Shown in pieces: positions 2,305-45,800 of a stretch of 53,702 bases of DNA. The stretch lies in NCBI GenBank assembly GCA_043751475.1, contig JAYUZV010000011.1, forward strand, positions 1-53,702. Direction: 5' to 3'. The notes beneath the pieces were generated by a model that did no database searches, had not been told where the DNA came from, and saw only the letters and a program-made list of their open reading frames with translations. The translations under genes and the position numbers were made by a program. The DNA comes from Chlamydiia bacterium. GTDB lineage: Bacteria; Chlamydiota; Chlamydiia; Chlamydiales; JAYUZV01. Numbering within the stretch: position 1 is the first letter of the stretch; every line of letters starts with the position of its first letter.

Positions 2305-3798
2305 ATGTTCTGTCATGTGCAATCGGCAGCTTTTGTCGGAATTGAGGCGCTTGCTGTCCATGTCGAGGCCGACGTGCGGCGGTCAGAAAAGTTACAGCTG
2401 ATTATTATTGGCCTACCGGACAGTGCCGTGCGCGAATCGAAGGACCGTGTCCTCTCTGCTCTGCAAAATAGCGGCATGGGCCTCTCAAATGTACAAGCGA
2501 CAATTAACTTAGCTCCCGGAGATCTGCGGAAAGAGGGGTCACTCTATGACTTGCCTATCGCGCTAGCACTCCTTGTCGCTAATGGAAAATTGAAGAGCAT
2601 CGACGACTACCTCTGCATCGGTGAACTTTCTCTATCAGGCCACCTCCGTCCCTTGCGCGGAGGTCTTGCTGTGGCTCTGCTTGCCAAACGCCTCGGCAAA
2701 AAAGGGGTTATTATGCCAAAAGAAGCAGCCGCAGCTGCCGCAATTGTTCCGGGCATTGCACTTTTTGGGGTAAGCTCTCTAACAGAAGCTGTCCATTTCC
2801 TGAACGGCCAGAGGCAAATTTCGCCGGAAAAAGAGATCTCCGTCTTAGAAAAGGAAGGGAAACCCGAGGTCAATTTTGCCGATGTAAAGGGACAGGCGCA
2901 TGTGAAGCGCGCCCTTGAAATTGCGGCAGCTGGAGGCCATAATGTTCTGCTTTATGGGCCACCTGGCTCTGGCAAAAGTCTACTTGCCAAGGCGCTGTGC
3001 GGAATACTTCCCGAAATGACCCTCGAGGAGGCCCTTGAAATTAGCCAGATCCACTCCTTTTCAAAAGGTGAGTCAGGTGGCGGCAACATTGTTAATCAGC
3101 GCCCATTTAGATCGCCCCACCACAGCACCTCCTTTGTCGGTTTAATCGGCGGTGGGAGCCACCCAAAGCCTGGAGAGATCACCCTGGCACATAGAGGTGT
3201 CTTATTCCTGGACGAGCTCCCCGAATTTTCGCGCGTCACGCTTGAGTCGCTCCGCCAGCCTCTGGAGGATGGACGCGTCTCAATTGTGCGCGCTGCGGGC
3301 AAGCTATCCTTTCCGTGCCGCGCCCTCCTAATTGCAGCCATGAACCCCTGCCCTTGTGGATATCTTGGCCATCCGACAAAAGCGTGTAGCGACACGGCGT
3401 TGCAAACAGCGCGCTACCGCAGCAAAATTTCGGGCCCCATGCTGGACAGATTTGACATGCATATCGAGGTGCCAGCACAAAAGATGGAAAAGTTGCTAGC
3501 AGATGAGCAGTCAGAGTGTAGCAGCACTATAAGGCAGCGTGTATCAAAGGCACGCAAGGTGCAGCTAGCCCGTAGCGGCAAGAGCAATAGCGAATTGCAG
3601 CCAGCGGCGCTGAAAGAGGTGTGCGCCATCACGCGATCTAGCAAAGAGCTACTAGAGCAAGCAAGCGCACAGATGAACCTCTCGGCGCGCGCCATTCACC
3701 GCATAATCAAGGTGGGTAGAACCATTGCCGACCTTGAGGGTAGCAAGGATATCACGGATGAGCACCTGATGGAGGCCCTCACCTACCGCCAGCTCTAA
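2305..3798 (+). CDS. comM: YifB/ComM-family Mg-chelatase-like AAA+ ATPase
   Basis: N-terminal Lon-protease-like region (SAAFVGIEA...DLPIALALL), Walker A GPPGSGKS, Walker B VLFLDELPEF, C-terminal ChlI-like region; 497 aa is the typical length. Confidence 0.9.
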   Translation: MFCHVQSAAFVGIEALAVHVEADVRRSEKLQLIIIGLPDSAVRESKDRVLSALQNSGMGLSNVQATINLAPGDLRKEGSLYDLPIALALLVANGKLKSIDDYLCIGELSLSGHLRPLRGGLAVALLAKRLGKKGVIMPKEAAAAAAIVPGIALFGVSSLTEAVHFLNGQRQISPEKEISVLEKEGKPEVNFADVKGQAHVKRALEIAAAGGHNVLLYGPPGSGKSLLAKALCGILPEMTLEEALEISQIHSFSKGESGGGNIVNQRPFRSPHHSTSFVGLIGGGSHPKPGEITLAHRGVLFLDELPEFSRVTLESLRQPLEDGRVSIVRAAGKLSFPCRALLIAAMNPCPCGYLGHPTKACSDTALQTARYRSKISGPMLDRFDMHIEVPAQKMEKLLADEQSECSSTIRQRVSKARKVQLARSGKSNSELQPAALKEVCAITRSSKELLEQASAQMNLSARAIHRIIKVGRTIADLEGSKDITDEHLMEALTYRQL

Positions 3799-3805
3799 AA
3801 AAAAA

Positions 3806-4105
3806 AGAGCAAGAAAGAAAATTGGCACGGATAACAGGATATTCAGGATAAGAAAGAAAGGATAAGGGGTAAGGGGGAGGATAAATGAAAAAACACGGTT
3901 TTTTCATTTGTTCCTCGGATTTCGCAGTCGAAATCCCGCTCCTCCGGAGAGGCGAATCTCTCTGCAGCTTACTCAGACTTAGAAATAAATAGTGGTTTAC
4001 TACTTAATTAATTATTTTTTTCTTATCCTCTTACTTATCCTGAATATCCTGTTATCCGTGCCAATTTTTCTTTCTTGCTTATCTTTCTTATCCTGCTACC
4101 CATCA
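3806..4105 (+). repeat. Palindromic intergenic element R1 (variant-A arms plus conserved core in + orientation)
   Basis: Left arm gcaagaaagaaaattggcacggataacaggatattcaggataag (3809..3852). Its reverse complement lies at 4034..4078, identical except for one extra T. The core lies at 3873..3967. The element sits between the convergent stop codons of comM (3798) and pssA (4116). Confidence 0.9.
3873..3967 (+). other. Conserved core module of the repeat family (copy 1 of 5): GGAGG, then ATG, hairpin A, hairpin B, GCTCCTCCGGA, then CTCTCTGCAG
   Basis: Hairpin A at 3883..3909 (aaatgaaaaaa / ttttttcattt). Hairpin B at 3917..3936 (ggatttcg cagt cgaaatcc). The same module is found at 15684..15780(-), 17559..17659(+), 38855..38951(+) and 40837..40935(-). 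Confidence 0.85.
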
Positions 4106-4115
4106 TCCAATCTTG

Positions 4116-4964
4116 CTACTCGTCCTCATCATCTTCGGGCTCAAAGTCCTCAAGCGTTTTAGACTTGCGGCCAGCAATGAGGCGAATAAGCGAGAGGGTC
4201 CACGCAAGAATCAGGTAAGACCAGGCCAGACCAAAGAAAACGACAGGAAAGAAATGAACAGCACCGTAAAGAAGAAACAAGCTGATAAGAACGGTGAAAA
4301 AGACAAGCTGAAAGGCGGGAACTTTGCGCAGGGAGATGGTTTTTAAGCTGGGAAACTTCCAGGGGCTCACCATAAAGTAGCCAAGCACCAGCATAACAGC
4401 CGATAGTATTAGTGCAATTGTCTGATTTGTAAGGTTTAAAAAAGAGACAAAGGGCGAGTTAAGAATGAGGATAGCCGAAATGGCAGAGAGAGCGCCAGCG
4501 TCAATTGGCAGCCCTGTAAAATTCTTCTTCTGGGCAGATTCGGCGGCATCGTCTCCTTTTGCAGCTGTGGCGGTCACATTATAGCGGACAAGGCGCAAAA
4601 TGGCGCAAATGGAAAAGAGCATGGCGCTACTCATCACAAGAAGCGCTAGAGGTGTTTTAGGTTGCAATTCAAGTGAGCGAATCAGTAGGACAGAGGGGGC
4701 CACGCCAAATGAGACCGCATCGGCAAGAGAGTCGAAGACCAGACCAAACTCGCTCTCGGCGTGCATAATGCGCGCAACAGCGCCGTCGAGCAAATCGGCA
4801 AGGGCTGCAATTAGCAAAAAAATCACACAGCTCTGCAGAATTTCGTAGGTGCCTATGGCTCCTTCCACATTCCGATCGAGCATCGTGATTTTAAAAATCA
4901 CAAAAAGACCACATGCCAGGCCAAAGGCAGTGATGGTGTTGGGAATTAGGTAGATTTTTTTCAT
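4116..4964 (-). CDS. pssA: CDP-alcohol phosphatidyltransferase, probably CDP-diacylglycerol--serine O-phosphatidyltransferase
   Basis: Motif D-x2-DG-x2-AR-x8-G-x3-D-x3-D, read as ADLLDGAVARIMHAESEFGLVFDSLADAV. The profile shows multiple transmembrane helices. Confidence 0.8.
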   Translation of the reverse strand: MKKIYLIPNTITAFGLACGLFVIFKITMLDRNVEGAIGTYEILQSCVIFLLIAALADLLDGAVARIMHAESEFGLVFDSLADAVSFGVAPSVLLIRSLELQPKTPLALLVMSSAMLFSICAILRLVRYNVTATAAKGDDAAESAQKKNFTGLPIDAGALSAISAILILNSPFVSFLNLTNQTIALILSAVMLVLGYFMVSPWKFPSLKTISLRKVPAFQLVFFTVLISLFLLYGAVHFFPVVFFGLAWSYLILAWTLSLIRLIAGRKSKTLEDFEPEDDEDE

Positions 4965-5139
4965 AGCGTACTCCGTAAAAGAACAGCTTAATCATACACC
5001 AAAGAGCAAAAAATAGGCGAGAGAGCAGCACAAAATTCTTCTCATGATTTTTTTTGGAGGGCTAATCCGATGGCATCCAAACGGCTAGCGAATTCAAAAA
5101 AATAAAACGCATTTTCTGTCTGGACGAAATCTCTGTGTA

Positions 5140-5188
5140 ACACTATATATTGTGTAAGAGAAGAAAATAAGAGCACAAGATCTAGTAT
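5140..5188 (+). promoter_or_regulatory. Tandem NrdR boxes upstream of nrdA
   Basis: Box 1, acactatatattgtgt (5140..5155), fits the published 16-bp palindrome acaCwAtATaTwGtgt at every position. Box 2, gcacaagatctagtat (5173..5188), matches about 12/16. The centre-to-centre spacing is 33 bp. The boxes lie 59 to 107 bp upstream of the nrdA ATG. Confidence 0.7.
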
Positions 5189-5246
5189 TTCCTCCTTATT
5201 CTACTGATTACAAGTGCGAAAGAAAAAGAGTTAAAAAAGTAAGCGG

Positions 5247-8200
5247 ATGGACCCTATGTCAAATCAAAGAGCAGATAATAGTAATAGCAGTACAATTGAA
5301 AGAAACTTGGAGTTCACCATTGTTAAACGCAATGGATCGCTTGTCCCCTTTCGGAAAGAGCGAATCGTGATTGCCCTTGAAGCAGCTTTTAAAGAAGCGA
5401 AGAAAATTGAGATGTTAAGTGCTCTTCCATCCGATATCCAGAAAAGTGTCCACCATGTGGCCGAATGCATCATCGATCAGCTACTTGAGCTTGCAGAGAG
5501 CAGCTCATCTGTTACAGTTGAAGGTGTCCAAGATCTAGTTGAATCGACACTTATGCGCGAGCAGTACCACGATGTTGCCAGATGCTATATCATCTACCGC
5601 GATAAGCATAAAGCTCTTCGAGAAGATTCTCCGCGTAACCTGCGCGTGCTGCGCGCCGATGGCTCGCAAGTGCGTTTTAACCCAATTAAAATTGCCTCAT
5701 CTCTTGAGGAGGGTTTTTTACATGCCCAAGAACTCGACGGTTATAGCAGTGATACAATTGTTGAGCTTGTAAACAATTTAACCAAAGAAATTGTCGAGCA
5801 GGTAATGGCCCTTAATAAAGAGAGCAGCGCCCTGACAACTGAACTACTTGAAAATTTAAGCGAAAAAGCCTTAATGCAATCTGGCCACTTTAATGTTGCC
5901 AAGTACTTTATACTTAAGCGCTCAGATGGCGGAAGCAGACCTAATTTCAGCAGATCCTCTAAAAAAGATAAGGTCAGTGGTGACAGATCTTTCAGAGTGG
6001 CTTATCCAGATGGTTCATTCCACCTCATCTCCGAAAAAACAATTGCAGCGCAGATGCGCTTTGCCTGCCGCGGACTTGAGTCGACTACATCTCCGGAACA
6101 GCTCGTTGCCGCCTCTGTCATGAACTTCTACGAAGGAATAAAGAGTAGCGAAATCGATTTAGCCAATATTATGGCCGCACGCGCTAAAATTGAGATTGAA
6201 CCAGCCTATTCGAAAGTTGCGGCAAGACTCTTACTCGATGTGACCTATCGAGAAGCTTTTGAGCGAGGAGCGTCAGACCCTAACCTCGATAGCGCCTACC
6301 GCAAATACTTTAAAAAGTATATCGCTCACGGGGTGACAATCGATAGACTCTCCCCTCTGCTGCTTGAATTTGATTTAGACAAACTTGCACAAGCACTTGT
6401 GCCCGAGCGCGACGACAAGTTTGCCTACCTAGGACTTCAAACCCTCTACGACCGCTACTTTATTCATGAAAATGATAGACGTCTTGAAACCCCTCAAATC
6501 CTCTGGATGCGCGTTGCTATGGGTCTTGCACTTGAAGAGACAAACCGCACAGAGAGAGCGATCGAATTCTACAACATCCTCTCAACATTCCTCTTCACCT
6601 CTGCAACCCCGACACTATTTAATGCGGGAACAACCCACTCGCAGCTCTCCTCTTGCTACCTCTCGACCATTGAAGATGACCTCGCCCATATTTTCAAAGT
6701 GATTTCCGACGACGCGCAGCTCTCGAAATGGGCTGGGGGGCTCGGTAATGATTGGACAAATGTCCGCTCAACTGGCGCTCGCATTAAGGGAACAAATGGC
6801 CGATCTCAAGGCGTTGTTCCGTTTATGAAAGTGGCAAATGACACAGCCGTAGCAGTTAACCAAGGCGGCAAGCGCAAAGGAGCTATGTGCGCCTACCTAG
6901 AAACATGGCACCTGGACATTGAAGATTTCCTTGAACTGCGTAAAAACACCGGTGATGAGCGCCGCAGAACCCATGACATGAATACTGCAAACTGGATTCC
7001 CGACCTATTCATGAAGCGCGTGCTACAAAATGGCAACTGGACCCTATTTAGCCCAAGCGATGTGCCAGACCTCCACCATCTTTACGGCAGCGCCTTTGAA
7101 GAGCGCTACGAGCAGTACGAGCAGATGGTGCGCGATGGCAAAATAGGACTATTTAAAGAGATTGAGGCGATGACTCTCTGGCGCAAGATGCTTAGCATGC
7201 TCTTTGAAACTGGCCATCCATGGATCACCTTCAAAGATCCATCTAACGTCCGCTCGCCACAAGATCACGTCGGCGTTGTACACAGCTCGAACCTGTGCAC
7301 CGAGATTTTGCTGAACACATCAAAAGAAGAAACCGCTGTTTGCAACCTAGGATCGATTAACTTAGCAGCACACACAACAGCCGATGGTCTGGACGAGGAG
7401 CTGCTTGCAAAAACTGTTAAAACAGCCATGCGGATGCTAGACAATGTCGTCGACATCAACTTCTACCCAACTGCCGAAACAAAAGTGTCTAACTCGCTCC
7501 ACAGACCGATCGGCCTTGGTCTGATGGGCTTCCAAGATGCCCTTTATATTCAGAATATTAGCTATGCCAGCCACGAAGCTGTCGCCTTTGCCGACAAGAG
7601 TATGGAGCTGATCTCCTACCACGCAATTTTAGGCTCATCCCAGCTTGCTGCTGAGCGCGGAACCTACCCTAGCTACAAGGGCTCGAAGTGGGACCGCGGG
7701 CTACTTCCCATCGACACAATCGACCTGCTTGAACAGGAGCGCGGAATGTCTATTGAAATGGACAAGTCACAGATACTAGACTGGAATATTGTCCGTGCAG
7801 CTGTAAAAGCAAATGGAATGCGTAACAGCAACACAATGGCTATTGCGCCGACAGCGACCATTGCCAATATTACCGATGTAACCCAGTCAATTGAGCCGAT
7901 GTACAAACACCTCTTTGTTAAATCAAACCTCTCTGGCGAATTCACCATACCCAACCCTTATCTAATTGAAAGACTTAAGGCTGAAAAGCTGTGGGATGCC
8001 GAAATGCTTGATGACCTGAAATATTTTGACGGTTCTATCCAAGAGATTGAGCGTATTCCAGAATCGATCAAGCGCGTATTCTTGACATCGTTTGACATTG
8101 AGCCTGAGTGGATTATTGAGTGCGCCTCACGTCGCCAGAAGTGGATTGACATGGGAGAGTCCCTCAACCTCTACCTAAAAGAGCCAAATGGTAAAAAGTT

Positions 8201-8435
8201 ACACAACATGTATATGCTGGCCTGGCAAAAAGGACTTAAGACAACCTACTACCTGCGCAGCCTTGCCGCTACACAGATTGAAAAATCGACAACTGACACC
8301 AACAAGCGCGGGCTGCAACCGCGCTGGATGAAGAGCCGTTCGGCCTCTAGCAACATCACCGTTAATCGCGAGCAGATAATAACCGCCAAACCCCAGGCGT
8401 GCACCCTCGGCGAGGCTTGTGAGAGTTGCCAATAG
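5247..8435 (+). CDS. nrdA: Ribonucleoside-diphosphate reductase alpha subunit (class I) with an extended N-terminus of three ATP-cone-like repeats
   Basis: Catalytic-core motifs ([20 protein letters not shown], and the C-terminal Cys pair CESC). ATP-cone-like segments [30 protein letters not shown] and [14 protein letters not shown]. Confidence 0.95.
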
Positions 8436-8497
8436 ATTGGTTTATCAACGCTTGTCAGAAAAACAGTATTTATAGAGAAATAATAGGAGAGATGTAA

Positions 8498-9529
8498 ATG
8501 TCAAATAAGAAGAATGTAGCCCGTATGACGGCCGATGATAAGAGATTAATTAACTGCAAACAGATTGATGTTAATCAGCTGATGCCACTGAAGTATACCT
8601 GGGCCTGGGAGCACTACCTAAACGGATGCGCCAACCACTGGATGCCATCGGAAGTGCCTATGTCTAAGGACATTGAGATGTGGAAATCAAATGGCCTTAG
8701 CGCAGATGAGAAGCGAGTGATCATGCGCAACCTCGGTTTTTTCAGCACAGCTGAGAGCCTTGTAGGCAATAACATTGTTCTTGCAATATTTAAGCACATC
8801 ACAAACCCAGAGGCGCGCCAATACCTTCTGCGTCAAGCTTTTGAAGAAGCGATTCACACCCACACCTTCCACTACATCGTCGAATCGCTATCGCTCGACC
8901 AAGGCGAGGTTTTCAATATGTACAACGAGATCGAATCGATCCAAGACAAGGACCAATTCGAGATGAAAATCACCCAAGACATTCTGAAAGAGGACTTTAC
9001 AACAGATACCCTAGAGGGCATGAGACTCTTTCTAAAGAATCTGATTGGCTACTACATCATTATGGAAGGAATCTTCTTCTATAGTGGCTTTGTGATGATT
9101 CTATCCTTTAATAGACAGAACAAAATGACTGGTATTGGCGAGCAGTTCCAATATATCCTGCGCGATGAGACAACCCACCTAAACTTCGGTATTGACCTAA
9201 TTAACGGGATTAAAGAGGAAAACCCGGAGCTATTTTCTCTTGATTTCCAGGCAGAGATTGCAGCGCTTATTAAAGAGGCTGTTGAGCTTGAAATCCGCTA
9301 CGCAGAAGATTGTCTACCGCGCGGCATTTTAGGCCTTACAGCGCCAATGTTCCGCGAATATGTGCAGCATATTGCAGATAGACGCCTTGAGAGAATCGGT
9401 ATGAAGGGAATGTATGGCTCTAAAAACCCATTTCCATGGATGAGCGAAACAATTGACCTTGGCAAGGAGAAGAACTTCTTCGAAACAAGAGTCAATGAGT
9501 ACCAGTCCGCCGCCAGCCTCGCCTGGTAG
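8498..9529 (+). CDS. nrdB: Ribonucleotide reductase beta subunit, class Ic-like (Phe at the radical-Tyr position, Glu at the first metal ligand)
   Basis: [12 protein letters not shown] aligns with the E. coli ETIHSRSYTHI block and places F124 (codon 8867..8869) at the Tyr122 position. STAESLV places E86 (8753..8755) at the Asp84 position. Ferritin-like ExxH pairs are present. Confidence 0.95.
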
Positions 9530-9550
9530 CAAAGATCCACAAGATCAAAA

Positions 9551-9620
9551 AAGCAAGATAAGCAAGGAAGAGGGTTTGCTTATCTTGCTTATCTTCGTCC
9601 AGATCCTATTATCCGTGCTT
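9551..9620 (+). repeat. Degenerate or solo member of the repeat family (R9), probably acting as the nrdB terminator hairpin
   Basis: Perfect 15-bp stem aagcaagataagcaa (9551..9565) / ttgcttatcttgctt (9576..9590), followed by atcctattatccgtgc. That sequence resembles the variant-A arm (atcctgttatccgtgc). Confidence 0.6.
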
Positions 9621-9702
9621 TATTAGAAATTAGTTGAAGTTAATTTGTTATTAAAATAAATTATAATTAGACAATTGACAAAACGCACTGGATAATAACA
9701 TT

Positions 9703-10704
9703 ATGGAAAAATCTCATTTTGATGAACATCAGATCCACGATACAGAAACCATGAAGCAATTTGTCACTGCCTCTGGAAAGTGGGAGATCAGTGCATCGGA
9801 TTTGGCTCACCTCAGCTATAAAGCAGCCGAGCGTATGGCCCAGCACAAAGAGCATATCGACGGTGGCTACAAAGATTATGCCAACCACGCCTTTAACATT
9901 TTTATCCAGATCTATAAATCCCCCTCTGCCACCTACGGCGAAACTTGGCTGAAAAAAATTCAAGATATCTGGCACAGCATTGCAAACCAAACTGAACTAG
10001 ATGAAGATACGCTTGAAGATGCCTTTTATACAAAAGCAAAAACAACTCTTGCCGAATATCCGGCGGCCTGGGCATCAATACTTTACGACTACACACGCTA
10101 TGTCCAGCGCACATCATTTGATAGGAAGTATGACGATCTCTTCATGAGTCTTAATAGAGCGATGTTTGGTAAACTCGTTCTTATAGAGGATATCTACACA
10201 AGACCTGAGCAGCGCGATGTGGAGACCTTTAGAAAGTTTATCCTCTGCGCGCAGGACTCCCCTTGGAGCGCTTATAGCAAGCAAATTGCTGAAATTACCC
10301 TGTTAACAGCTGGCCGAATTGCCACCCACCGCGAGCATATTAATGGCGTCTATACCAATTATATTGACCATGCGGCAGGTATTTTTAGAGCCCTCAATCA
10401 GACCGATAGCAATAAGCATGCTAGATCTTGGTTAAAAGAGATTGCAAGTGCCTATAAGGAGTTTGATGTCTCAGAAGAGATAACAAGAGGAAGTCCGATC
10501 GATTTTCACACGGCAAATAGCCACCTATTTAACAAATATCCAGAAGTTTGGGTGCAAATTGCCTATGACGTGCTGAAATATAACCAGTATGTCGCGGGTC
10601 AAAATGATGAGAGTAAAAAGCTAATGAACACTTTTGACAAGCTGCGCGGCCACATCACCTGGGACTTTAAAGACACCGAACACTTGCGCTTCGAAGCCGC
10701 TTAA
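9703..10704 (+). CDS. Hypothetical protein made of two tandem repeats of about 160 aa
   Basis: Internal duplication: AERMAQHKEHIDGGYKDYANHAFNIF...WLKKI...EYPAAWASILYDYTRY matches GRIATHREHINGVYTNYIDHAAGIF...WLKEI...KYPEVWVQIAYDVLKY at an offset of 160-161 residues. Confidence 0.6.
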   Translation: MEKSHFDEHQIHDTETMKQFVTASGKWEISASDLAHLSYKAAERMAQHKEHIDGGYKDYANHAFNIFIQIYKSPSATYGETWLKKIQDIWHSIANQTELDEDTLEDAFYTKAKTTLAEYPAAWASILYDYTRYVQRTSFDRKYDDLFMSLNRAMFGKLVLIEDIYTRPEQRDVETFRKFILCAQDSPWSAYSKQIAEITLLTAGRIATHREHINGVYTNYIDHAAGIFRALNQTDSNKHARSWLKEIASAYKEFDVSEEITRGSPIDFHTANSHLFNKYPEVWVQIAYDVLKYNQYVAGQNDESKKLMNTFDKLRGHITWDFKDTEHLRFEAA

Positions 10705-10739
10705 TATTAAATGATTAACAAACAAAAGGAGAATAAACT

Positions 10740-11114
10740 ATGGCATTCAATTTGGATGACGCAAAAAAAATTTACGAAAAAGCTAACAAGATCCAAAAAG
10801 AGATTGACGCTGTAGCCGGAGATTCAGATATCGCAGATGAACTTATTAAGTGGAGCGAAGGCTGGTCGAAAGAAAACAAAGATATGCCTAAAGAACTTAA
10901 AACAGCTTTTGACCTCCTGCATAAAATTACGAAGAATTCATTTGCTTGGAGCTCCGCTACAGCTATCCCTCAAACAAAACCAACTTTACTAGCCCTCTAC
11001 GCTTTTGCAAGTAGCCGCGGATTTAAAAACACAAAAGTCCAAGCGCTTCTTCAACAAAAACCGCTTCCAGACCTAACTGCCATGATGAAAGATGCAGCTA
11101 AAAAAGCGGCGTAA
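10740..11114 (+). CDS. Hypothetical small helical protein
   Basis: 124-aa ORF with aaggag upstream (10725..10730), followed by a strong terminator at 11132..11156. I recognise no motif. Confidence 0.55.
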   Translation: MAFNLDDAKKIYEKANKIQKEIDAVAGDSDIADELIKWSEGWSKENKDMPKELKTAFDLLHKITKNSFAWSSATAIPQTKPTLLALYAFASSRGFKNTKVQALLQQKPLPDLTAMMKDAAKKAA

Positions 11115-11131
11115 GCAAGCAAGCTTGATGG

Positions 11132-11156
11132 GGAGGGCGAAAGCCCTCCTTTTTTT
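11132..11156 (+). terminator. Rho-independent terminator
   Basis: Stem ggagggc (11132..11138), GAAA tetraloop, gccctcc (11143..11149), then a T7 run (11150..11156). Confidence 0.8.
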
Positions 11157-11188
11157 ACATAATTAATAAAAAGAATGAGCCTTTATAG

Positions 11189-11698
11189 ATGTCACTAAAA
11201 AAAGAGCTTACCGAAGCAATGAATAATCCCAAGATATTCGATTCTATGAAAATTTCTGGATTTAACCAGATTGTCTCATCTCTTGCCCATATTGAAGATG
11301 ATAAAAGTAAACAACTACCTGGACAAAATAAACATCTTCTTTTTATGTCAGCACCCGCTATTTGGCTTTGCAATACTATAGAAAACAGATATCTATGTAA
11401 TTTCCTTAATGTTTCAAAAGCAACCACCGATTTTGTAAAAAATAGCAATTTACCAGACCCAGCTACACCCTATGAAGGAAAAGGAAATAGGCTAGATCAG
11501 GAAAAAGCTCTATATAACAGCTACCAAAAGTTTTTCTTTTCCGGTATTGGTTCACAAACTCCCTCAACTCGTCTAATTGACCTTTGCAAAATTTGGGCCG
11601 CCTACTACCTCTACCGTCCTGCCATGCCAGGTGACGAGCGGGGCGAGCCAAAAAACCACGCAACCGTTCGGCTGATTACAAAAAAACCATTGAAGTAA
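11189..11698 (+). CDS. Hypothetical protein
   Basis: 169-aa ORF. It is longer than the competing antisense ORF 11155..11448 and is followed by a bidirectional terminator at 11781..11804. I recognise no motif. Confidence 0.5.
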   Translation: MSLKKELTEAMNNPKIFDSMKISGFNQIVSSLAHIEDDKSKQLPGQNKHLLFMSAPAIWLCNTIENRYLCNFLNVSKATTDFVKNSNLPDPATPYEGKGNRLDQEKALYNSYQKFFFSGIGSQTPSTRLIDLCKIWAAYYLYRPAMPGDERGEPKNHATVRLITKKPLK

Positions 11699-11780
11699 TC
11701 TACAAAGCTGTTGAAAAAGCCCAAAAGAGAACAGTTAAAGTAAAAAAAGCTGCTTAATTTCAATGGAGTAGGAGGTAAAA

Positions 11781-11804
11781 GCCGGGAGATTCCCGGCTTT
11801 TTTT
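11781..11804. terminator. Bidirectional intrinsic terminator between convergent genes
   Basis: Stem gccggga (11781..11787), loop gat, tcccggc (11791..11797). It is flanked by aaaa upstream and T7 downstream. The SET-gene stop codon is at 11809. Confidence 0.75.
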
Positions 11805-11808
11805 ATTG

Positions 11809-12558
11809 CTAGAATTTTTCTGGGCGGGAGCCAAGATCTTTCCAGTAATCACTTCCATAGTCATAGAGGAGCTGACTGCCGGCTGGGATGTCGCGAGAGG
11901 CGACAAAAAAGATGTGGCCGAGCCCTTTCCAGAAGAAATATTCGCTATCGATGTTATTCTTTTTAGAGCGCGTACTGGCGTGGTTCATAAACTGGGCATA
12001 GCCCCCTTTGCGCTGCGGATCGATGACCCACGCATTCATCTTTGTCCCATCAAAGCCGAAGAGATAGCCGTTGTCTTCCGCTTCATCATGCAAACAGATC
12101 TCGCCTGGATAGTTGGTGATGACGGATCCCTTCGGGATATCCTCTTTAGTAAAAAGACCATAGCCCACAGCATCACTCACCTTGCGAATCTCCACACGAG
12201 AGGCGTAGACATCGCTTGCATCTTCCTGAACTGTGTCGATCAGCTCAATAAAAGCGCGCTGAAGTTTAGAGGGTCTTTTGGGCACCATTTTTTCCGCAAA
12301 CTTAGCAAAATGTTCGCTAAAGGCGATGCGATATTTTGCCTTTACTGTCACCTTGGAGGTGTATTTAATCTTTGTCTCAAAATTTAGGCGATTTTTAAAG
12401 GTTGCAGAGAGTTCATTGTTTTCAGATTTTATCTCTTTTGCTAGTTCCGCAAGAATGCGAGAACCATTTCCATCTTCTATCTCGAGTTTCTTCTTTCCAA
12501 AAGGGAAGCGGTAGTCGGAAAAAAGCCCCTTGATTGCACTAAAAATCGTCTTTCCCAT
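11809..12558 (-). CDS. SET-domain protein (putative protein lysine methyltransferase, similar to the chlamydial SET/NUE type)
   Basis: GYGLFTKEDIPKGSVITNYPGEI, FMNHAS (NH motif) and SRDIPAGSQLLYDYG (ELxxDY-like) form a SET fold signature in the C-terminal half. Confidence 0.85.
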   Translation of the reverse strand: MGKTIFSAIKGLFSDYRFPFGKKKLEIEDGNGSRILAELAKEIKSENNELSATFKNRLNFETKIKYTSKVTVKAKYRIAFSEHFAKFAEKMVPKRPSKLQRAFIELIDTVQEDASDVYASRVEIRKVSDAVGYGLFTKEDIPKGSVITNYPGEICLHDEAEDNGYLFGFDGTKMNAWVIDPQRKGGYAQFMNHASTRSKKNNIDSEYFFWKGLGHIFFVASRDIPAGSQLLYDYGSDYWKDLGSRPEKF

Positions 12559-12647
12559 ATCGGTTGCCTCTATATTTTATAACTCTTATCTCTAAATAGC
12601 GCACTTAAGCTAATATTAGAAAGATCTTTTATAAGTGCAGGAGTGAT

Positions 12648-15545
12648 ATGAGCAGCAAAAACCTTACAAATAGCCATTTTCTAATAGAAAAAGAGGTGGA
12701 GATAGCCGAAATTGGGATAACGCTCTGCCTATTGCGCCATAAAAAAACAGGGGCACGTATAGTGCATCTGCAAAATCCGGAAGATCCCGAAAATGTCTTT
12801 GCCATATCACTCCTAACAATTCCCGACAGCAGCAACGGCGTTGCGCACATTTTAGAGCATACTGTTCTTTGCGGGTCGAAAAAATATCCGGTTAAAGACC
12901 CCTTCTTTTCTATGACGCGAAGGAGCCTTGCCACATTTATGAATGCCCTCACCTGGCCAGACCACACCTGCTATCCGGCAGCATCAGAGGTCACACAAGA
13001 TTTTTATAACCTGCTCGGGGTCTATCTAGATGCTGTTTTTTACCCACTGCTAAAAAAAGAGAGCTTTTTGCAAGAAGGGCATAGACTTGCCTTCACAGAA
13101 AGTGAAGATCTTGAATATCAAGGAATTGTATACAACGAAATGAAGGGAGCCCTCTCCTCGCCAGATAGCCGTATCTGGGAGGCGATTATGGAGCAATTAA
13201 CACCGGGTTTAACCTACGCGCACAACTCTGGCGGTGACCCGAAAGAGATTCCAAACCTCACCTATGAGCAGCTGCGCGCCTTTCACGCTAAATTCTACCA
13301 CCCGAGCCAAGCCCTATTTTACTTCTACTCCAACTTGCCGAGAGGCGACCTCCTCTCCTTCCTTGAAGAGAAGTGCTTATCGGGCTTTGAAAAAGCAGAG
13401 CCGCTCCCGGAACTCCCCCTCCAGCCGCGCTTTAAAGCGCCTGTTGCGTCAACTTACTACTACCCAGCAAGTAAAGCGGACGAGGAGGCTAAAGAGGCCA
13501 TTTTCACCTTTGCTCTTCTGACCGGATCTGTCACAAATAGCGAGGATCAGCTCGCTTTGATGCTACTCGATGCAATCCTATTTAACAACGACGCCTCACC
13601 TGTAAAGCGCGCGCTACTCGACTCGAAACTCTGCACGCAAGCCGACGGATATTTAAGCCAAGGATCGACAGAGGTTCCCTACATCATTATCTGCAAAGGG
13701 TGCAAGCAGGGATCGCAAGGGGCTTTATGGAATGTTATCCGCAACAGTCTTGAGCAGCTTGTAAAGGATGGAATTGAGCAGGGACTGGTTGATTCTGCTC
13801 TGCACCAGCTTGAATTTGAAAAACTCGAAATCACCGGTGGGAGCGAACCCTACGGCCTATCCCTCGCCTTCCGTACACTTCCTCTGATGCACTACGGAGC
13901 CGCTCCAGAAGATGGCCTCCTTTTTGTGCAGCAATTTAAAGCCCTGCGCAAATCACTTGAAGATAGTGACTTTTTACCCGCACTGATCCGCCGTTATTTC
14001 CTAGAAAACAACCACAGAGCCGACATCACCTTTCTGCCAGATAGCACCCTTTTTGAAAAAGAGAGCGCTGCCGAAAAAGCTAGCCTCTCCAAAATCGAAA
14101 AAGAGCTCTCGCCAGATAGAAAAACCGAAATTATCCAAATGGCTAAAAAACTCGAAAAAGAGGAGGAGGACAAAAGCTTCTTACTTCCCATGCTCCACCT
14201 ATCTGAAGTTCCAGAGAGCGTTAAACCCTACCCCATCACCTCCTCCAAAAGTGGCAACATCGCCCTATTTCATCACAAAACTGTAACAAATGGGATTGTC
14301 TACGCAACTCTTCATACAGATATGCCGGAGCTCACCCATGATGAGCTGGAGCTCTTTCCTCTTTTCCTAGCAATTTTTACCCAGGTTGGGGTGGGCAAAC
14401 TCTCCTACAAAGAGAATCTGCTGCGGCAGGAGGCGAAGCTCGGCGGAATTTCAGCGAAAATGGATTTTTTTGCGCAAACAGCCGATCCACAACAGTGGAA
14501 GCCAAGCTTCATAGTTCAGGGCAAATCTCTTAGCATGAACAGCAAAGATCTTATGGAGCAGATGCAAGAGGCGCTGCTTCAAACGCGCTTTGATGAGAGC
14601 GAGCGCATTTCGGAGCTAATTCTGCAAATTCAGGAGAGTTTAACGCAGAGAATTACCAAAAATGCACCGGGCTATGCAAGAGCTCTCGCGCTTGCCGGAT
14701 TTTCACCGATGCACGCGACGCGCAACCTCTGGCACGGCCTACCCTACTTCAAAAAAATAGGCGCAATCACCCATGATTTAAACGGTAATTTGCCGCACGT
14801 ACTGGCCACTTTAACCTCTATTAAAAGTAAACTGATCGCCCGTAATCCGCAAATGGTCATTAGCTCCTCTGGGGCTGATTTCGAAACATTAAACGAAAAT
14901 CACTTTTACGACCTATCAGAGATAAAAGTAGCGCCCGGAAAACTCTGGACTCCTACCTTTAGAAGCGAAGAAATAGCAGCTCAGAGGGTCCAGATACCCG
15001 CGAGTGTGGCGTTTAACTGCCTTGGACTACCATCCATTTCGTACAGCCACGCGGACGCCCCCCTTCTTTTGCTGAGCTCAGAGCTGATGAAACTAGTGAC
15101 CCTCCATCCAAAAATCCGCGAGGAGGGCGGAGCCTACGGCTCTGACGCCTCTTACGACCCAGGCAGCGCCACATTCACCTTCTCCTCATTCCGTGACCCA
15201 AACATTGACAAGACATTTAATGTCTTTAAAGAGGCGGCAGAGAGCGTCGCAGAAGGGCGCTTTACAGATGAGCAAGTTTCTGAGGCTAAGCTTGCTATAC
15301 TGCAAGATATGGACTCGCCTGTAGCACCTGGGAATAGAGGAAATGTGGGTTATAGTTTGCTGCGCAGCGGCAAAACAGAGACGATGCGCCTCGCATTTAG
15401 GCATAAACTGCTGACAGCTAGCAAGCAAGAGATCGCGCGCGCTGTGAAAGAGCATCTGCTGAGCCAATTTGCTAGCGCCATCCCGATAAGCTTTGCCGGT
15501 AAGGAGCTAAAAAGCTCCCTACTACCCACCACCGACTCTTTCTAG
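12648..15545 (+). CDS. M16C-family (PreP/pitrilysin-like) zinc metallopeptidase
   Basis: Inverted zinc motif HxxEH in VAHILEHTVLCGS, followed by NALTWPDHTCYP. At 965 aa it has the four-domain size typical of presequence-protease-like enzymes. Confidence 0.9.
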   Translation: MSSKNLTNSHFLIEKEVEIAEIGITLCLLRHKKTGARIVHLQNPEDPENVFAISLLTIPDSSNGVAHILEHTVLCGSKKYPVKDPFFSMTRRSLATFMNALTWPDHTCYPAASEVTQDFYNLLGVYLDAVFYPLLKKESFLQEGHRLAFTESEDLEYQGIVYNEMKGALSSPDSRIWEAIMEQLTPGLTYAHNSGGDPKEIPNLTYEQLRAFHAKFYHPSQALFYFYSNLPRGDLLSFLEEKCLSGFEKAEPLPELPLQPRFKAPVASTYYYPASKADEEAKEAIFTFALLTGSVTNSEDQLALMLLDAILFNNDASPVKRALLDSKLCTQADGYLSQGSTEVPYIIICKGCKQGSQGALWNVIRNSLEQLVKDGIEQGLVDSALHQLEFEKLEITGGSEPYGLSLAFRTLPLMHYGAAPEDGLLFVQQFKALRKSLEDSDFLPALIRRYFLENNHRADITFLPDSTLFEKESAAEKASLSKIEKELSPDRKTEIIQMAKKLEKEEEDKSFLLPMLHLSEVPESVKPYPITSSKSGNIALFHHKTVTNGIVYATLHTDMPELTHDELELFPLFLAIFTQVGVGKLSYKENLLRQEAKLGGISAKMDFFAQTADPQQWKPSFIVQGKSLSMNSKDLMEQMQEALLQTRFDESERISELILQIQESLTQRITKNAPGYARALALAGFSPMHATRNLWHGLPYFKKIGAITHDLNGNLPHVLATLTSIKSKLIARNPQMVISSSGADFETLNENHFYDLSEIKVAPGKLWTPTFRSEEIAAQRVQIPASVAFNCLGLPSISYSHADAPLLLLSSELMKLVTLHPKIREEGGAYGSDASYDPGSATFTFSSFRDPNIDKTFNVFKEAAESVAEGRFTDEQVSEAKLAILQDMDSPVAPGNRGNVGYSLLRSGKTETMRLAFRHKLLTASKQEIARAVKEHLLSQFASAIPISFAGKELKSSLLPTTDSF

Positions 15546-15546
15546 C

Positions 15547-15915
15547 AGCACCGATCAGCACGCTAGCAAGCAAGAGAGCAAGAAAGAAAAATTGGCAGGA
15601 TACAGGATGGGCAGGATAAGGCGAGGATAAAGAAAAGGGATAAGTAAGAAGGCAAGGTTTTAATTAATAAAGGGTTAAAGCAGCTACAGAGAGGAGCGCC
15701 CCTCCGGAGGAGCGGGATTTTGCACTTAGCAAAATCCGAGGAACAAATGAAAAAAACGTGTTTTTTCATTTATCCTCCCCCTTATCCCTTATCTTTTCTT
15801 ATCCTTTCTTATCCTGTTATCCGTGCGGATTCTCTTTCTTTCTTACCCCTTTCCCTTATCCTCGGCTGATCCTGCCCATCCTCTATCCGTGCAAACCCTC
15901 TTTCTTGCTTCCCCA
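15547..15915 (-). repeat. Palindromic intergenic element R2 (variant-B outer arms, variant-A-like inner right arm, core in - orientation)
   Basis: Left arm gcaagaaagaaaaattggcaggatacaggatgggcaggataaggcgaggataaag (15578..15632) pairs imperfectly with 15854..15908. The core is at 15684..15780 on the minus strand. Hairpin B is at 15715..15737 (ggattttgc / gcaaaatcc). Confidence 0.85.
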
Positions 15916-16003
15916 CCCACTTATTGTTATAAAACTTGACGGGAGTTAATAGTTTTTATTAGGATGAGCTAATTGATAGTAATTATTAATTGGACGCTTG
16001 TTT

Positions 16004-17464
16004 ATGAAATTATTAAGGCCGATTGCCCTAGCCCTCTCACTCTCTCTTTGCGCGCTTCACGCAGAAAATAGCGCAGATGTTGCCGCACTTAAATCACTCT
16101 CAAATGGCTTTAGAGAAGTCGCAAAAAAGGCAACGCCAGCTGTTGTCTTTTTAGAGGTCCAAGTCGCGGGTGCTAGTGAGGAGATGGGCAGTGCAGGGGC
16201 AACCCCTTTTGAAGATGACGCCCTTGAAAACTTCTTTGGCCACTCATTTAAGCGAGGCAAGCCAAGCTACCAGACTCAATCTCAAGGTTCTGGGTTTTTT
16301 GTCTCGAGCGATGGTTACATTTTGACAAACAACCACGTTGTGGCTAATGCCTCTAAAATTATTGTCCGCACAACACTTAACCGCGACTATGTCGCAAGCG
16401 TTATTGGAACAGATAAATCTAGCGATATGGCACTACTAAAAATTGAGGGTAAAAATTTCCCCTATCTCGAATTTGCAAAGCCGGATACGTTAGAGGTTGG
16501 TGAGTGGGCCATTGCTATTGGCAGCCCCTTCGCCCTTTCAAACACATTCACAGTAGGTGTTGTGAGCGCAAAAGGACGCAGCACCTTGCGCATTGCCGAC
16601 TACGAAGATTTTGTCCAGACAGATGCGGCAATTAACCCCGGCAATTCGGGCGGTCCTTTAATTAATCTCGATGGAAAAATCATTGGAATTAACACGGCAA
16701 TTGCTTCAAAATCTGGCGGCTACAACGGAATTGGCTTTGCAATCCCCGTTAATTTAGCAACATTTGTGATGAATCAACTGAAAACAAATGGCAAGGTCTC
16801 TCGCGGCTTTTTAGGTGTTGGACTACGCGAAATCGATGCTGAAATGGCGTCTAAATTTAAGCTGCAAATGGTTGAGGGAGCCCTTATTTCTGAGGTAGAA
16901 ACAGGCTCCCCTGCCGCTACTGCTGGATTAAAACTCGGCGATATTATCCTCGAATTTAACGATAAGCCGGTGACAGATTACGGAAAATTGCGCAATGAGA
17001 TCTCGATGACCCCTCCTGGACAGAGTGTCGCAATAAAGGTACTACGTGCAGATGGCGCTACTATCACATTAAACCCGATTCTTGGCTCTGCCGCAGGACA
17101 CGCCAGCAGCGCAGCGGGTATGGTTAAAAAATTAGGTTTTACTGTTAAAGATATTTCTAAAGCCTTTAGAAGCAAAATAGAAGCGCAAATCGGTGAGAGC
17201 GCCGGAAGTTTGCAGGGCTGCTATGTCTCCTCGCTTCTTGTCGGGACTCATGCCCAGCACAGAGGTGTCCATGTCGGTATGGTCATTGATGAGGTCAATC
17301 GCACGCCGGTTACAAATGCCGCCGAATTCAATAAAGCCGTTGCCGCCTACCTAGAAGATGTCAAACTCTCGGCTGGCAAGAAAAAACCGGCTCTACTCTT
17401 GCGCGCTGTTTCGATTAAGTCCGGCAAAGCACTCTCCTCCTACATCACCATCCCCACTCCGTAG
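16004..17464 (+). CDS. htrA: HtrA/DegP periplasmic serine protease with two PDZ domains
   Basis: Signal peptide MKLLRPIALALSLSLCALHA. Catalytic triad contexts NNHVV, DMALLKI and GNSGGPL. A C-terminal PDZ-like region is present. The ORF track starts at TTG 15998; ATG 16004 is preferred. Confidence 0.9.
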   Translation: MKLLRPIALALSLSLCALHAENSADVAALKSLSNGFREVAKKATPAVVFLEVQVAGASEEMGSAGATPFEDDALENFFGHSFKRGKPSYQTQSQGSGFFVSSDGYILTNNHVVANASKIIVRTTLNRDYVASVIGTDKSSDMALLKIEGKNFPYLEFAKPDTLEVGEWAIAIGSPFALSNTFTVGVVSAKGRSTLRIADYEDFVQTDAAINPGNSGGPLINLDGKIIGINTAIASKSGGYNGIGFAIPVNLATFVMNQLKTNGKVSRGFLGVGLREIDAEMASKFKLQMVEGALISEVETGSPAATAGLKLGDIILEFNDKPVTDYGKLRNEISMTPPGQSVAIKVLRADGATITLNPILGSAAGHASSAAGMVKKLGFTVKDISKAFRSKIEAQIGESAGSLQGCYVSSLLVGTHAQHRGVHVGMVIDEVNRTPVTNAAEFNKAVAAYLEDVKLSAGKKKPALLLRAVSIKSGKALSSYITIPTP

Positions 17465-17812
17465 CACGGATCAGTAAGATAGCAAGCAGGATCAGTAAGA
17501 TAAAGTAAGAAAACCCGCAGGGATAACAGGATATTCAGGATAAGAAAGATAAGGATAAGGGGGAGGATAAATGAAAAAAACATTGTTTTTTCATTTGCTC
17601 CTCGGATCGCGCATCAAGGGCGCGATCCCGCTCCTCCGGAATGGCACACCTCTCTGCAGTTGCATTAACCCTTTCTCTCTTAAAATCTTACATTCTTTCT
17701 TGTTCTTGTAATTTTTTTTCTTATCCTCTTACTTATCCTGAATATCCTGTCATCCGCGCAAATTCTCTTTCTTACTTTCTTGCTTACTTTATCTTGCTGA
17801 TCCTTGCTCTAT
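17465..17812 (+). repeat. Palindromic intergenic element R3 (variant-A arms, core in + orientation)
   Basis: Left arm ggataacaggatattcaggataag (17521..17544) and right arm cttatcctgaatatcctgtcatcc (17733..17756). The core is at 17559..17659. Hairpin B is at 17604..17628 (ggatcgcgc / gcgcgatcc). Outer tracts rich in gtaag/cttac also pair. Confidence 0.85.
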
Positions 17813-38775: not shown

Positions 38776-38789
38776 CACCGATTACACCA

Positions 38790-39050
38790 CAAGAAAAGAA
38801 AGGAAAATTGGCACGGATAACAGGATAAGAAAGGATAAGGAAAGAAAGAGAAAAGGGGAGGATAAATGAAAAAACACGGTTTTTTCATTTGTTCCTCGGG
38901 TTTTGCAAAGAGCAAAACCCCGCTCCTCCGGAGTGGCAACCCTCTCTGCAGTAGCTCTAGCTTTAGAGGTTTTACTATTTAATTATTTTTTTCTTACTTA
39001 TCCTTTCTTATCCTGTTATCCGTGCCAACCCTCTTTCTTTTTTTATCCTT
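38790..39050 (+). repeat. Palindromic intergenic element R5 (short variant-A arms, core in + orientation)
   Basis: Left arm aaattggcacggataacaggataagaaaggataagg (38805..38840). Right arm cttacttatcctttcttatcctgttatccgtgccaaccc (38993..39030). The core is at 38855..38951. Hairpin B is at 38898..38920 (gggttttgc / gcaaaaccc). Confidence 0.85.
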
Positions 39051-39137
39051 TTCAAATCCTGCGATCCTTGCAGAGCTTGAGAATTATCAGGGCTGTCGGC
39101 TATTCTTAAGGCTTATATCTAATTGGAGAAAAGCTCT

Positions 39138-40706: not shown

Positions 40707-41030
40707 CAAGATCAGCAAGGATAAAGCAGCAAGAAAGCAAGAAAGAAAAATTGGCACGGATAACAGGATAAGAAAGGATAAAGAAAGAAAAAATTAATTA
40801 AATTAAAAAGCCTATTTACTTATAAAGCTAGACCTACTGCAGAGAGGGTTGCCGCTCCGGAGGAGCTGGATTTCGCTTCTTAGCGAAATCCGAGGAACAA
40901 ATGAAAAAACGTTGTTTTTTTCATTTATCCTACCCTTATCTCCTTTCTTTCTTATCCTCGCCTTATCCTGTCCATCCTGTATCCTGCTAACTCTCTTCCT
41001 TTTTCTTTCTTTTCTTATCCTTGCTGACAT
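40707..41030 (-). repeat. Palindromic intergenic element R6 (variant-A left arm, variant-B right arm, core in - orientation)
   Basis: The core is at 40837..40935 on the minus strand. Hairpin B is at 40868..40891 (ggatttcgc / gcgaaatcc). The terminal inverted pair atcagcaaggataa (40711..40724) / ttatccttgctga (41017..41029) overlaps the last codons and stop of ORF 41015..41332. Confidence 0.85.
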
Positions 41031-45787: not shown

Positions 45788-45800
45788 CTATGACTCCTAA

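Follow-up and report, generated by a model that had tools for sequence, protein, structure and literature searches.

What are the large palindromes that recur between the genes of an uncultured chlamydial genome, and how did they come to lie at so many gene ends? The question is raised by a stretch of 53,702 nt (hereafter the window) from contig JAYUZV010000011.1 of the Chlamydiia assembly GCA_043751475.1, in which a sequence-only reading had listed nine intergenic regions built as related inverted repeats. The palindromes are a real, well-defined and unnamed repeat family, notable for its stop-codon-associated insertion and for an arm motif found across Chlamydiota and Acidobacteriota. The elements are probably non-autonomous and mobile, and resemble miniature inverted-repeat transposable elements (MITEs).

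Anatomy of the palindrome family

The dispersed family described by the sequence-only reading proved to be real, and eight of its nine loci are solid. The ninth (9551-9620), which had been taken for a full copy, is a degenerate fragment that scores below the threshold of the arm profile. The window has 40 copies of the unit GGATAAG, where shuffles predict 6.4 (largest shuffle 15), and 33 copies of CAGGATA, where 5.2 are expected. Nearly all of these copies lie within the nine intergenic regions, and a repeat search of the window recovered direct and inverted repeat families at the same coordinates. The alignment of 20 arm sequences gave one consensus, AAGAAAGAAAATTGGC-ACGGATAACAGGATAnnnCAGGATAAG. 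The consensus arm begins with an A/G-rich leader, continues with AATTGGC-ACGG or AATTAGCAGG and closes with 3-6 units of CAGGATAn/GGATAAG. An nhmmer profile matched exactly 19 arms in the window, all intergenic and none in coding sequence; the profile was built from the same 19 arms, so the count is partly circular and the absence of genic matches is the informative part. The arm order was plus then minus for 19 of 19 arms, that is, head-to-head pairing. The elements are summarized in Table 1.

Table 1. Elements of the window (e1 to e9) and comparable hairpins of the acidobacterial locus L070, with arm variants (A, B, C), core strand and minimum free energy (MFE, kcal/mol)
Element	Extent	Form	Arms (variant)	Core (strand)	MFE	Location and remarks
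e1	3798..4089	long	left 3798-3868 (A); right 4017-4089 (A)	3866-3972 (+)	-137.6	fills the gap between convergent comM-like and pssA-like genes; AT-rich spacer TTAATTAATTA around 4005-4016; degenerate arm units run on to 4115
e2	9551..9620	degenerate fragment	16-bp palindrome GCAAGATAAGCAAG... and one decayed terminus (A; GCACGGATAATAGGATCTG, minus strand)			after the nrdB stop
e3	15559..15910	compound	outer 15559-15643 and 15847-15910 (B); inner 15788-15845 (A)	15679-15788 (-)		between tandem + genes
e4	17483..17783	long	17483-17563 and 17709-17783	17552-17664 (+)		begins directly after the htrA stop codon; decayed outer units span 17465 to 17812
e5	30768..30938	short, without core	left 30768-30839 (C); right 30868-30938 (A)			between convergent genes
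e6	38782..39061	long	38782-38859 and 38988-39061	38847-38956 (+)		after the priA stop; promoter-like site for lysS downstream, 39077-39106
e7	40722..41020	long, heterologous arms	left 40722-40792 (A); right 40942-41020 (B)	40832-40943 (-)		between convergent genes
e8	45795..45964	short	near-perfect arms (C), 52 nt, 94% complementary		-100.9	only copy between divergent gene starts
e9	49643..49926	nested	outer 65-nt perfect arms 49645-49709 / 49861-49925 (B); inner element 49705-49848 (C)		-204.4	
L070 hairpins	4920-5008, 8488-8560, 15402-15482, 16443-16573, 17360-17503, 18191-18275					

Three alignable arm variants were distinguished, which are sometimes mixed within one element and in one case nested. 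The sequence-only reading had recognised two of them. Variant A is found exactly as it was quoted at 3819-3852, the quoted variant B is a consensus that lies one mismatch from each real copy, and a third variant, AATAACAGGATGGACAGGATATT, has to be added. An AT-rich spacer had been described for all the centres; the spacer TTAATTAA is present in five of the nine elements. The region 49647-49950, described as a single element, consists of two nested ones. The oriented core, the nesting, the heterologous arms and the arm motif in other genomes had been overlooked. A 41-nt arm at 3818-3858 (left arm of e1) is identical to an inverted copy at 30881-30921 (right arm of e5), the two arms being 100% complementary at loci 27 kb apart. 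The copies of variant A differ by whole units in the arm alignment (…CAGGATA-TTCAGGATAAG or …CAGGATA-AGAAAGGATAAG), and Tandem Repeats Finder (TRF) gave periods of 8-16 nt inside the arms.

The arms are individually purine-rich tandem arrays and are not self-complementary. All the elements fold as giant hairpins with MFE values of -51 to -204 kcal/mol, compared to -26 to -89 for shuffles; the inverted repeat of e1 extends over 40 nt with 98% complementarity (z -14.5 for the fold). The element size is 170-380 nt and the distance from arm to arm ranges between 6 and 190 nt. In their outermost flanks the elements carry decayed versions of the arm terminus (TAGCAnGGAT…, AGCAAGATAAG…).

Five elements contain a core of ~110 nt, which is the best-conserved stretch of the family (87-94% identical between loci) and is predicted to fold into three hairpins (z = -4.7). 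Hairpin H1 has 18 bp and is A/U-rich (GAGGATAAATGAAAAAA...TTTTTTCATTTGTTCCTC); the 5' side of its stem is the Shine-Dalgarno-like GGAGGA at the start of the core. Hairpin H2 has 9 bp and a variable loop, with compensatory double changes in four of nine pairs across the five copies, and the segments CCGCTCCTCCGGAG and CCTCTCTGCAG are conserved 3' of it. A small protein encoded in the core was considered, as GGAGGA-N5-ATG is present, and was rejected: the open reading frame (ORF), the only one in the elements, is frame-shifted in two of the five copies and truncated in one. The orientation of the core to the upstream gene is mixed, three sense and two antisense, which fits a transposon passenger better than a strand-specific RNA. 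The five copies score 109-126 bits with a covariance model of the core, and nothing comparable was found in 283 kb of related loci. A 20-mer of the core, scanned in 185,579 species genomes, gave 24 single matches in unrelated taxa; none of these 24 loci was enriched in GGATAAG, and the one inspected, in a Parachlamydiaceae metagenome-assembled genome (MAG), was not an element. Searches with a gapped pattern of the core returned 0 matches in the JGI metagenomes and 0 in IMG/VR.

Gene ends, filled sites and relatives

The copies had been said to lie mostly at gene 3' ends, and eight of the nine elements do occupy intergenic regions that hold a gene 3' end (three convergent, five tandem); the region 45801-45960 is the exception, flanked by two divergent gene starts. 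A stop codon precedes the left arms by 0-14 nt. Between tandem genes, 70-90 nt are left between the element and the next start, and promoter-like sites are found between the element and the downstream start codon at 15936 and 39077. The stops that touch an element read TAG then CA in 6 of 11 cases, compared to 1 of 23 elsewhere in the window. A pyrimidine before the stop (IS5-type YTAR) was rejected as a target feature, since it showed no enrichment (8/13 element borders, 12/23 other stops).

Strong canonical terminators (11-13-bp stems with a T-run) were located only at element-free 3' ends, at 2275, 11130, 11777 and 46316, and within the window they never share an intergenic region with an element. 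Either strand of an element reads as an A-rich tract, a long G+C-closed stem with the base GGCACGG/CCGUGCC and then AAUUUUUCUUUCUU. The elements thus have the layout of an intrinsic terminator, i.e. a stable G-C-closed stem and a U-rich tract downstream of a stop. The consensus terminator scanner omits them because their loops exceed its limit. Shape and position suggest a role as terminator or mRNA stabiliser, and the host probably uses the elements as bidirectional terminators or as protective hairpins at the 3' end.

Filled and empty sites were revealed in a second chlamydial lineage. The locus L045 is chlamydial, its RecA being 84-86% identical to Chlamydiia, Chlamydiales and Rhabdochlamydiaceae proteins, and it encodes Legionella_OMP-family porins. 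It contains two elements of ~90 nt, at the OMP-glk and recA-ispA junctions, whose folding energies are -44 to -52 kcal/mol, with U7 downstream. At OMP-glk, L045 carries an 89-nt element and the sister species L072 (RecA 97%, DNA 87%) is empty, with the convergent genes overlapping. The blastn high-scoring segment pairs overlap there by 6 nt (TTTTAA in L072), and TTCTAA flanks both sides of the element in L045. With the element in place, the OMP gene keeps its TAA and glk gains three codons and a stop from the element. The recA-ispA junction is filled in both L045 and L072, the flanks in L045 being GAATAG…TAATAG (AATAG repeated). In L076 (RecA 98%) the same junction has overlapping genes, a single AGTAG and no element, and L073 (90%) and L074 (87%) are likewise empty. 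At two independent sites, a whole-element indel has at its borders a short direct repeat including the stop codon, which, as read from these alignments, is the classical signature of transposition or precise excision. A duplication of this kind would explain why the copies abut stops. Between L045 and L072, the recA-ispA copies are distinguished by a duplicated terminal unit and partly exchanged arms, indicating that the elements evolve quickly.

Two other features of these loci were noted. A TnpB-only IS605-type element (OrfB_IS605 and Cas12f1-like TNB domains) lies at about 9914-11110 of L045, inserted relative to L072; TnpB/IS605 was rejected as the mobiliser, this element being a separate insertion with unrelated ends. 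L072 contains a different palindrome at 16331-16501, which has 80-nt arms of 80% complementarity and does not belong to the CAGGATA type.

The arm motif GGATAACAGGATA-N3-5-AGGATAAG was found in 31 metagenome stretches, about one being estimated by chance. The stretches represent about 22 distinct sequences, and roughly 15 short palindromes are left after dropping duplicates and a few coding or microsatellite matches. The relatives follow one grammar, namely an A-rich AAATT leader, (A/G)CAGG(G)ATAACAGGATAnnCAGGATAAG, a short loop, the mirror arm and a T-rich trailer. The AAATT leader and the (A/G)CAGGG clamp lie outside the query, so the similarity exceeds what the search imposed. The relatives fold to -31 to -103 kcal/mol, most of them lie between convergent or tandem gene ends, and the G+C content of their hosts is 39 to 66%. 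The loci L042/65/66 belong to the Acidobacteriota (Pyrinomonadaceae), as judged via cluster-mates at 90% identity, and L055 shows nested copies together with a SycD/LcrH chaperone. An arm of ~35 nt is common to Chlamydiota and Acidobacteriota, which suggests either horizontal spread or the action of a mobilising enzyme.

Head-to-tail arrays of at least 4 copies of a 34-nt unit (AGACAGGATAACAGGATATACAGGATAAGACAGT) were observed at 1467-1592 of L043 and 6018-6135 of L067; the unit equals a single CAGGATA arm, and the sequence up to the contig end contains no inverted partner. The arm pattern also matched a long imperfect microsatellite, (GGATAAGTTA)n, which covers most of the 1.9-kb contig L056 (1-1877) and is probably unrelated to the family.

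A different picture was observed in L070, from the Acidobacteriota MAG GCA_002058925.1, where nearly every intergenic region holds a hairpin, often reaching from stop to start (Table 1). The arms are mirror tandem arrays of 4-5 copies of a heptamer that differs from locus to locus (GTTCAAA, AAAAGGC, GGATTTT, AAGACTC, AAAAGTG), and variant units stand at mirrored positions. At a gene end where L070 has a heptamer hairpin, the related strain L042 carries a CAGGATA palindrome instead.

Insertion weighed against other origins

The explanation preferred here, with moderate confidence, is a MITE-like non-autonomous element that targets TAA/TAG, nests in its own AT-rich centre and is incidentally a bidirectional terminator or 3'-protective hairpin. 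The basic unit would be a palindrome of ~90-170 nt, each arm starting with a purine-rich A/G leader, followed by a clamp of G+C ((T)TGGCACGG or TAGCAGG) and by 3-6 tandem units of 8-10 nt (CAGGATAA / GGATAAG type). The unit would insert at a TAA/TAG triplet and duplicate a few bases that include it. The stop codon would thereby be regenerated on both sides, and insertion would be tolerated even between overlapping convergent genes. New copies would land in the AT-rich centre of older copies, giving nested mosaics of 300-380 nt with mismatched arm variants, and the structured core would ride along inside five copies as a passenger. Transcribed in either direction, the element would offer an A-tract, a long stem and a U-rich tail (…CCGUGCCAAUUUUUCUUUCUU), the layout of a bidirectional intrinsic terminator or of 3' protection. 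The nesting, the heterologous arms, the identical 41-nt arms at distant loci, the 87-94% identity of the cores, the assembly breaks inside the elements, the relatives of the arm motif in other genomes and the lack of an element in the syntenic region of the nearest relative examined were counted in favour of a mobile element; the direct support comes from the filled and empty sites of the second chlamydial lineage.

Several observations weigh against this explanation. The borders of the elements in the window are fuzzy, the arms grading into decayed units of the AGCAAGA type, and a clean target duplication is not readable there, partly because targets of the CTAG/TTAA type are palindromic. The sequence-only reading had named a MITE-like origin as an option and a presence/absence comparison between strains as its check. 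The comparison gave variation with duplications among L045, L072, L076, L073 and L074 and none for the window organism, all eight other assemblies of which are 100% identical over the window, so that mobility in this genome is an inference. The family has no copy in the 10 kb to the left of the window. Neither a cognate transposase nor an autonomous partner with the same ends was found in the window or in ~280 kb of related loci. The duplications in L045 are of 3-6 bp, with an exact length that is uncertain as they adjoin T-runs and the compared species differ by 10-13% in DNA; microhomology-mediated indels may be their source. The position of e8 upstream of two diverging genes is hard to reconcile with efficient termination. 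The locus-specific heptamers of L070, in hairpins of the same build, are left unexplained by a sequence-specific transposase.

The last point belongs to the most serious competitor, in which the hairpins are owned by the host, selected at 3' ends as bidirectional terminators or exonuclease barriers, and kept similar by gene conversion and not by transposition. The hairpins would grow in place by slippage of a 7-10-nt unit, mirrored to the other arm by intrastrand template switching. The build of the arms from short tandem units, the whole-unit differences between copies and the TRF periods are in accordance with such growth, as are the mirrored variant units of the locus-specific arrays in L070 and the duplicated terminal unit and partly swapped arms of the recA-ispA copies in L045 and L072. 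The elements also occupy the positions where element-free loci have canonical terminators. However, the empty sister sites have overlapping genes without a hairpin, so there was no terminator to expand, and the filled sites carry flanking duplications. Mixed-variant and nested elements arise more easily by insertion, the same ~35-nt arm occurs in different phyla, and the identical arms at distant loci are left unexplained. Host-owned hairpins are therefore credible but unlikely as the origin of the family, while in-place slippage with mirror copying probably contributes to the evolution of the arms. A broader proposal was also considered, in which the elements of the window are one branch of a cross-phylum class of self-propagating 3'-end hairpins with arms made of mirrored short tandem repeats. 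Classical transposition would not be what makes and spreads them; they would insert at stop codons and then develop through slippage of units and mirror copying within a strand, or through the addition of repeats to the two ends of a break. The host would gain portable terminators that work in both directions, with the chlamydial core as an extra structured RNA or DNA module. The class would include the CAGGATAA type in Chlamydiota and Acidobacteriota and the locus-specific heptamers in Acidobacteriota. This broader proposal looks quite unlikely.

Two further explanations place the function in a part of the element. In one of them the ~110-nt core is the functional part, as a small structured RNA gene or a cis-regulatory RNA, and the arms merely flank it. 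The conservation of the core, its three-hairpin fold and the compensatory changes in H2, which appear across only five copies around a variable loop, speak for it; but hairpin-templated repair of a DNA palindrome also yields compensatory changes without selection on an RNA. The mixed orientation to the flanking genes and the broken ORF argue against an RNA gene and a coding role respectively, no promoter-like or terminator-like site frames the core, it has no Rfam match and is absent from every other collection searched, and four elements do without it. A functional core is improbable on this evidence. In the other, the CAGGAUA/CAGGAUG/GGAUAAG units are protein-binding sites and the palindrome is secondary, either as a sponge for CsrA/RsmA-type proteins, which bind GGA, in the 3' untranslated RNA or as a DNA array for a nucleoid or regulatory protein. 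Repeats of CAGGAUG are found in CsrB-type RNAs, and the CsrA consensus obtained by in vitro selection (SELEX), RUACARGGAUGU, resembles UUACAGGGAUAA. Each arm has 3-6 GGA-containing units spaced 7-14 nt apart, and a unit conserved across phyla would fit a conserved binding protein. Yet every GGA would be buried in a near-perfect duplex in the full transcript, whereas proteins of the CsrA type recognise GGA in unpaired form. The spacing of the units lacks helical phasing, the arm-to-arm distance varies over the range given above, the acidobacterial hairpins use unrelated units and no candidate protein was identified. Binding sites as the primary function are thus highly improbable.

If the MITE-like explanation is true, a compact intracellular genome is being colonised by a miniature stop-codon-targeting element that brings its own two-way terminator. 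The elements would then explain why short-read assemblies shatter at gene ends, would offer ready strain-typing markers for uncultured Chlamydiota and would be a concrete case of selfish hairpins becoming host terminators. Repeats of the MITE and REP type at gene ends are already well known, and no major concept is changed.

Known systems and the host genome

The family was compared with known systems. The likeness to named MITE families is drawn from their general features and is not a sequence test. Bacterial MITEs, such as the Correia elements (CREE) of Neisseria and, for a TAA-type target, the Tourist-type elements of IS5/PIF-Harbinger, are likewise small, non-coding, multi-copy and intergenic. 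Also common to both are hairpin-forming terminal inverted repeats, nested insertions and, in relatives, filled and empty sites with a short duplication, and both can supply terminator-like hairpins. The elements of the window are under about 600 bp without coding capacity and share inverted terminal arms (19, with one consensus). They differ from bacterial MITEs in that the arms themselves consist of 8-10-nt units in tandem and in that the stop codon itself (TAA/TAG plus 0-3 nt) appears to be what is duplicated as target. In sequence they resemble no searchable family, and no cognate transposase was identified. No transposase-like ORF was found in the window by Pfam, in agreement with the sequence-only reading.

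The repetitive extragenic palindromic (REP) sequences of Proteobacteria, with the mosaics (BIME) and hairpins (REPIN) built from them, are similar in lying outside genes, at 3' ends or between cistrons, in forming mosaics of inverted motif variants and in their proposed role in termination or mRNA stabilisation. REP units are defined as imperfect palindromes of 20-40 nt that carry a GTAG or CGTC tag (PMC3733652). In contrast, a single arm of the window family is not palindromic and has no conserved GTAG/CGTC tag, so it falls outside the definition of REP (PMC3733652), and the elements are 5-10 times longer than REP, BIME or REPIN. No gene for the REP-associated tyrosine transposase (RAYT, a Y1 transposase) was found in 64 kb of the host genome. 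The earlier description of large palindromes thus stands as to a dispersed, alignable and unnamed family mostly at gene 3' ends, and its comparison with REP/BIME fails on the features that define REP.

Bidirectional intrinsic terminators share with the elements the A-rich tract, the G+C-closed stem, the U-rich tract and the position directly after stops, often between convergent genes. However, the stems of the window family are of 40-150 bp and not of 5-15 bp, the same sequence is repeated genome-wide, the U-tract is interrupted by C and one copy is upstream of two genes. Intergenic units of 7-10 nt common to distant phyla, with a transfer mechanism that is not known, are also a feature of heptamer and other short tandem repeats. 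The short tandemly repeated repetitive (STRR) sequences of cyanobacteria are intergenic repeats of this kind. TAACTGA repeats are found in Beggiatoaceae, Cyanobacteria and Bacteroidetes (PMC4679880), and GGGNATC repeats have also been described (PMC4692102). All these systems are arrays in direct orientation that mostly precede start codons or form G-quadruplexes, whereas the window family consists of mirror pairs in 3'-end hairpins. The Rickettsia palindromic elements (RPE) are palindromic repeats of ~100-150 nt that likewise spread in an obligate intracellular bacterium; they typically lie in frame inside genes, whereas all 19 arms of the window family are intergenic, with a hint of one element-derived C-terminus. 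This concerns the M50-peptidase-like gene, the last ~13 codons of which (30942-30985) resemble decayed outer units (AGCAAGGATCA…GATAAAG…), and its C-terminus may be derived from an element.

The database searches were in accordance with the earlier statement that no named family matches. Rfam gave 0 matches in the window at gathering score and only sub-threshold noise at E up to 10 for 3780-4130; on ten related loci it gave 0 matches except one tRNA. The elements have no tRNA or tmRNA identity. A plasmid or phage origin was rejected, since blastn gave no plasmid or phage match, and the arm motif was not found in the literature searched. The cyanobacterial HIP1 (GCGATCGC) was excluded with 0 copies. 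Resemblances to the DnaA box, the sigma-70 promoter, the 23S rRNA/I-SceI site (GGGATAACAGG) and FtsK/KOPS were dismissed, as they extend over 6-11 nt only and were mostly imposed by the search pattern.

The host represents a deep-branching lineage of Chlamydiota that is uncultured and has been recorded only in a few metagenome assemblies. The window contains ordinary housekeeping genes, including comM-like, pssA, nrdAB, htrA, priA, lysS, cysS, sucCD, ftsY and fabF. The nearest LysS among 5.8 billion proteins is 67% identical, and among the homologues listed the only organism-named one is from a Rhabdochlamydiaceae MAG. NrdB (8498-9529) is closest to the PDB entries 1SYY and 4D8F (E about 1e-177), which we take to be the class Ic R2 protein of Chlamydia trachomatis; by reading of the sequence it has Phe at the position of the radical Tyr. 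A SET-domain protein is encoded at 11809-12558, and it fits a chlamydial host, as does the class Ic-like NrdB.

The short-read assemblies break inside the elements, as expected of a multi-copy, genome-wide repeat: L026 corresponds to 4108-15613 of the window and L031/L032 to 38999-40764, L030 ends at 45959, and a 76.7-kb contig ends at ~49673. Several assemblies begin or end near position 1 of the window, though no element is located there. The 10 kb to the left (L035 1-9863) contain accessory-looking genes (AAA_14/DUF4143, MepB-like, PLD).

The syntenic region of the nearest relative examined (GCA_023265455.1, LysS 67%) contains no such element. At 8870-8953 of L033, from the same assembly, a hairpin with 36-nt arms, purine-rich and then pyrimidine-rich, stands directly after the priA stop; it is unrelated in sequence to the window family and alike in build and position. 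Within the window, a 3943-aa ORF with no Pfam family on record occupies 18936-30767 and contains a GCAGAG (Glu/Ala-rich) hexanucleotide repeat at 29253-29374.

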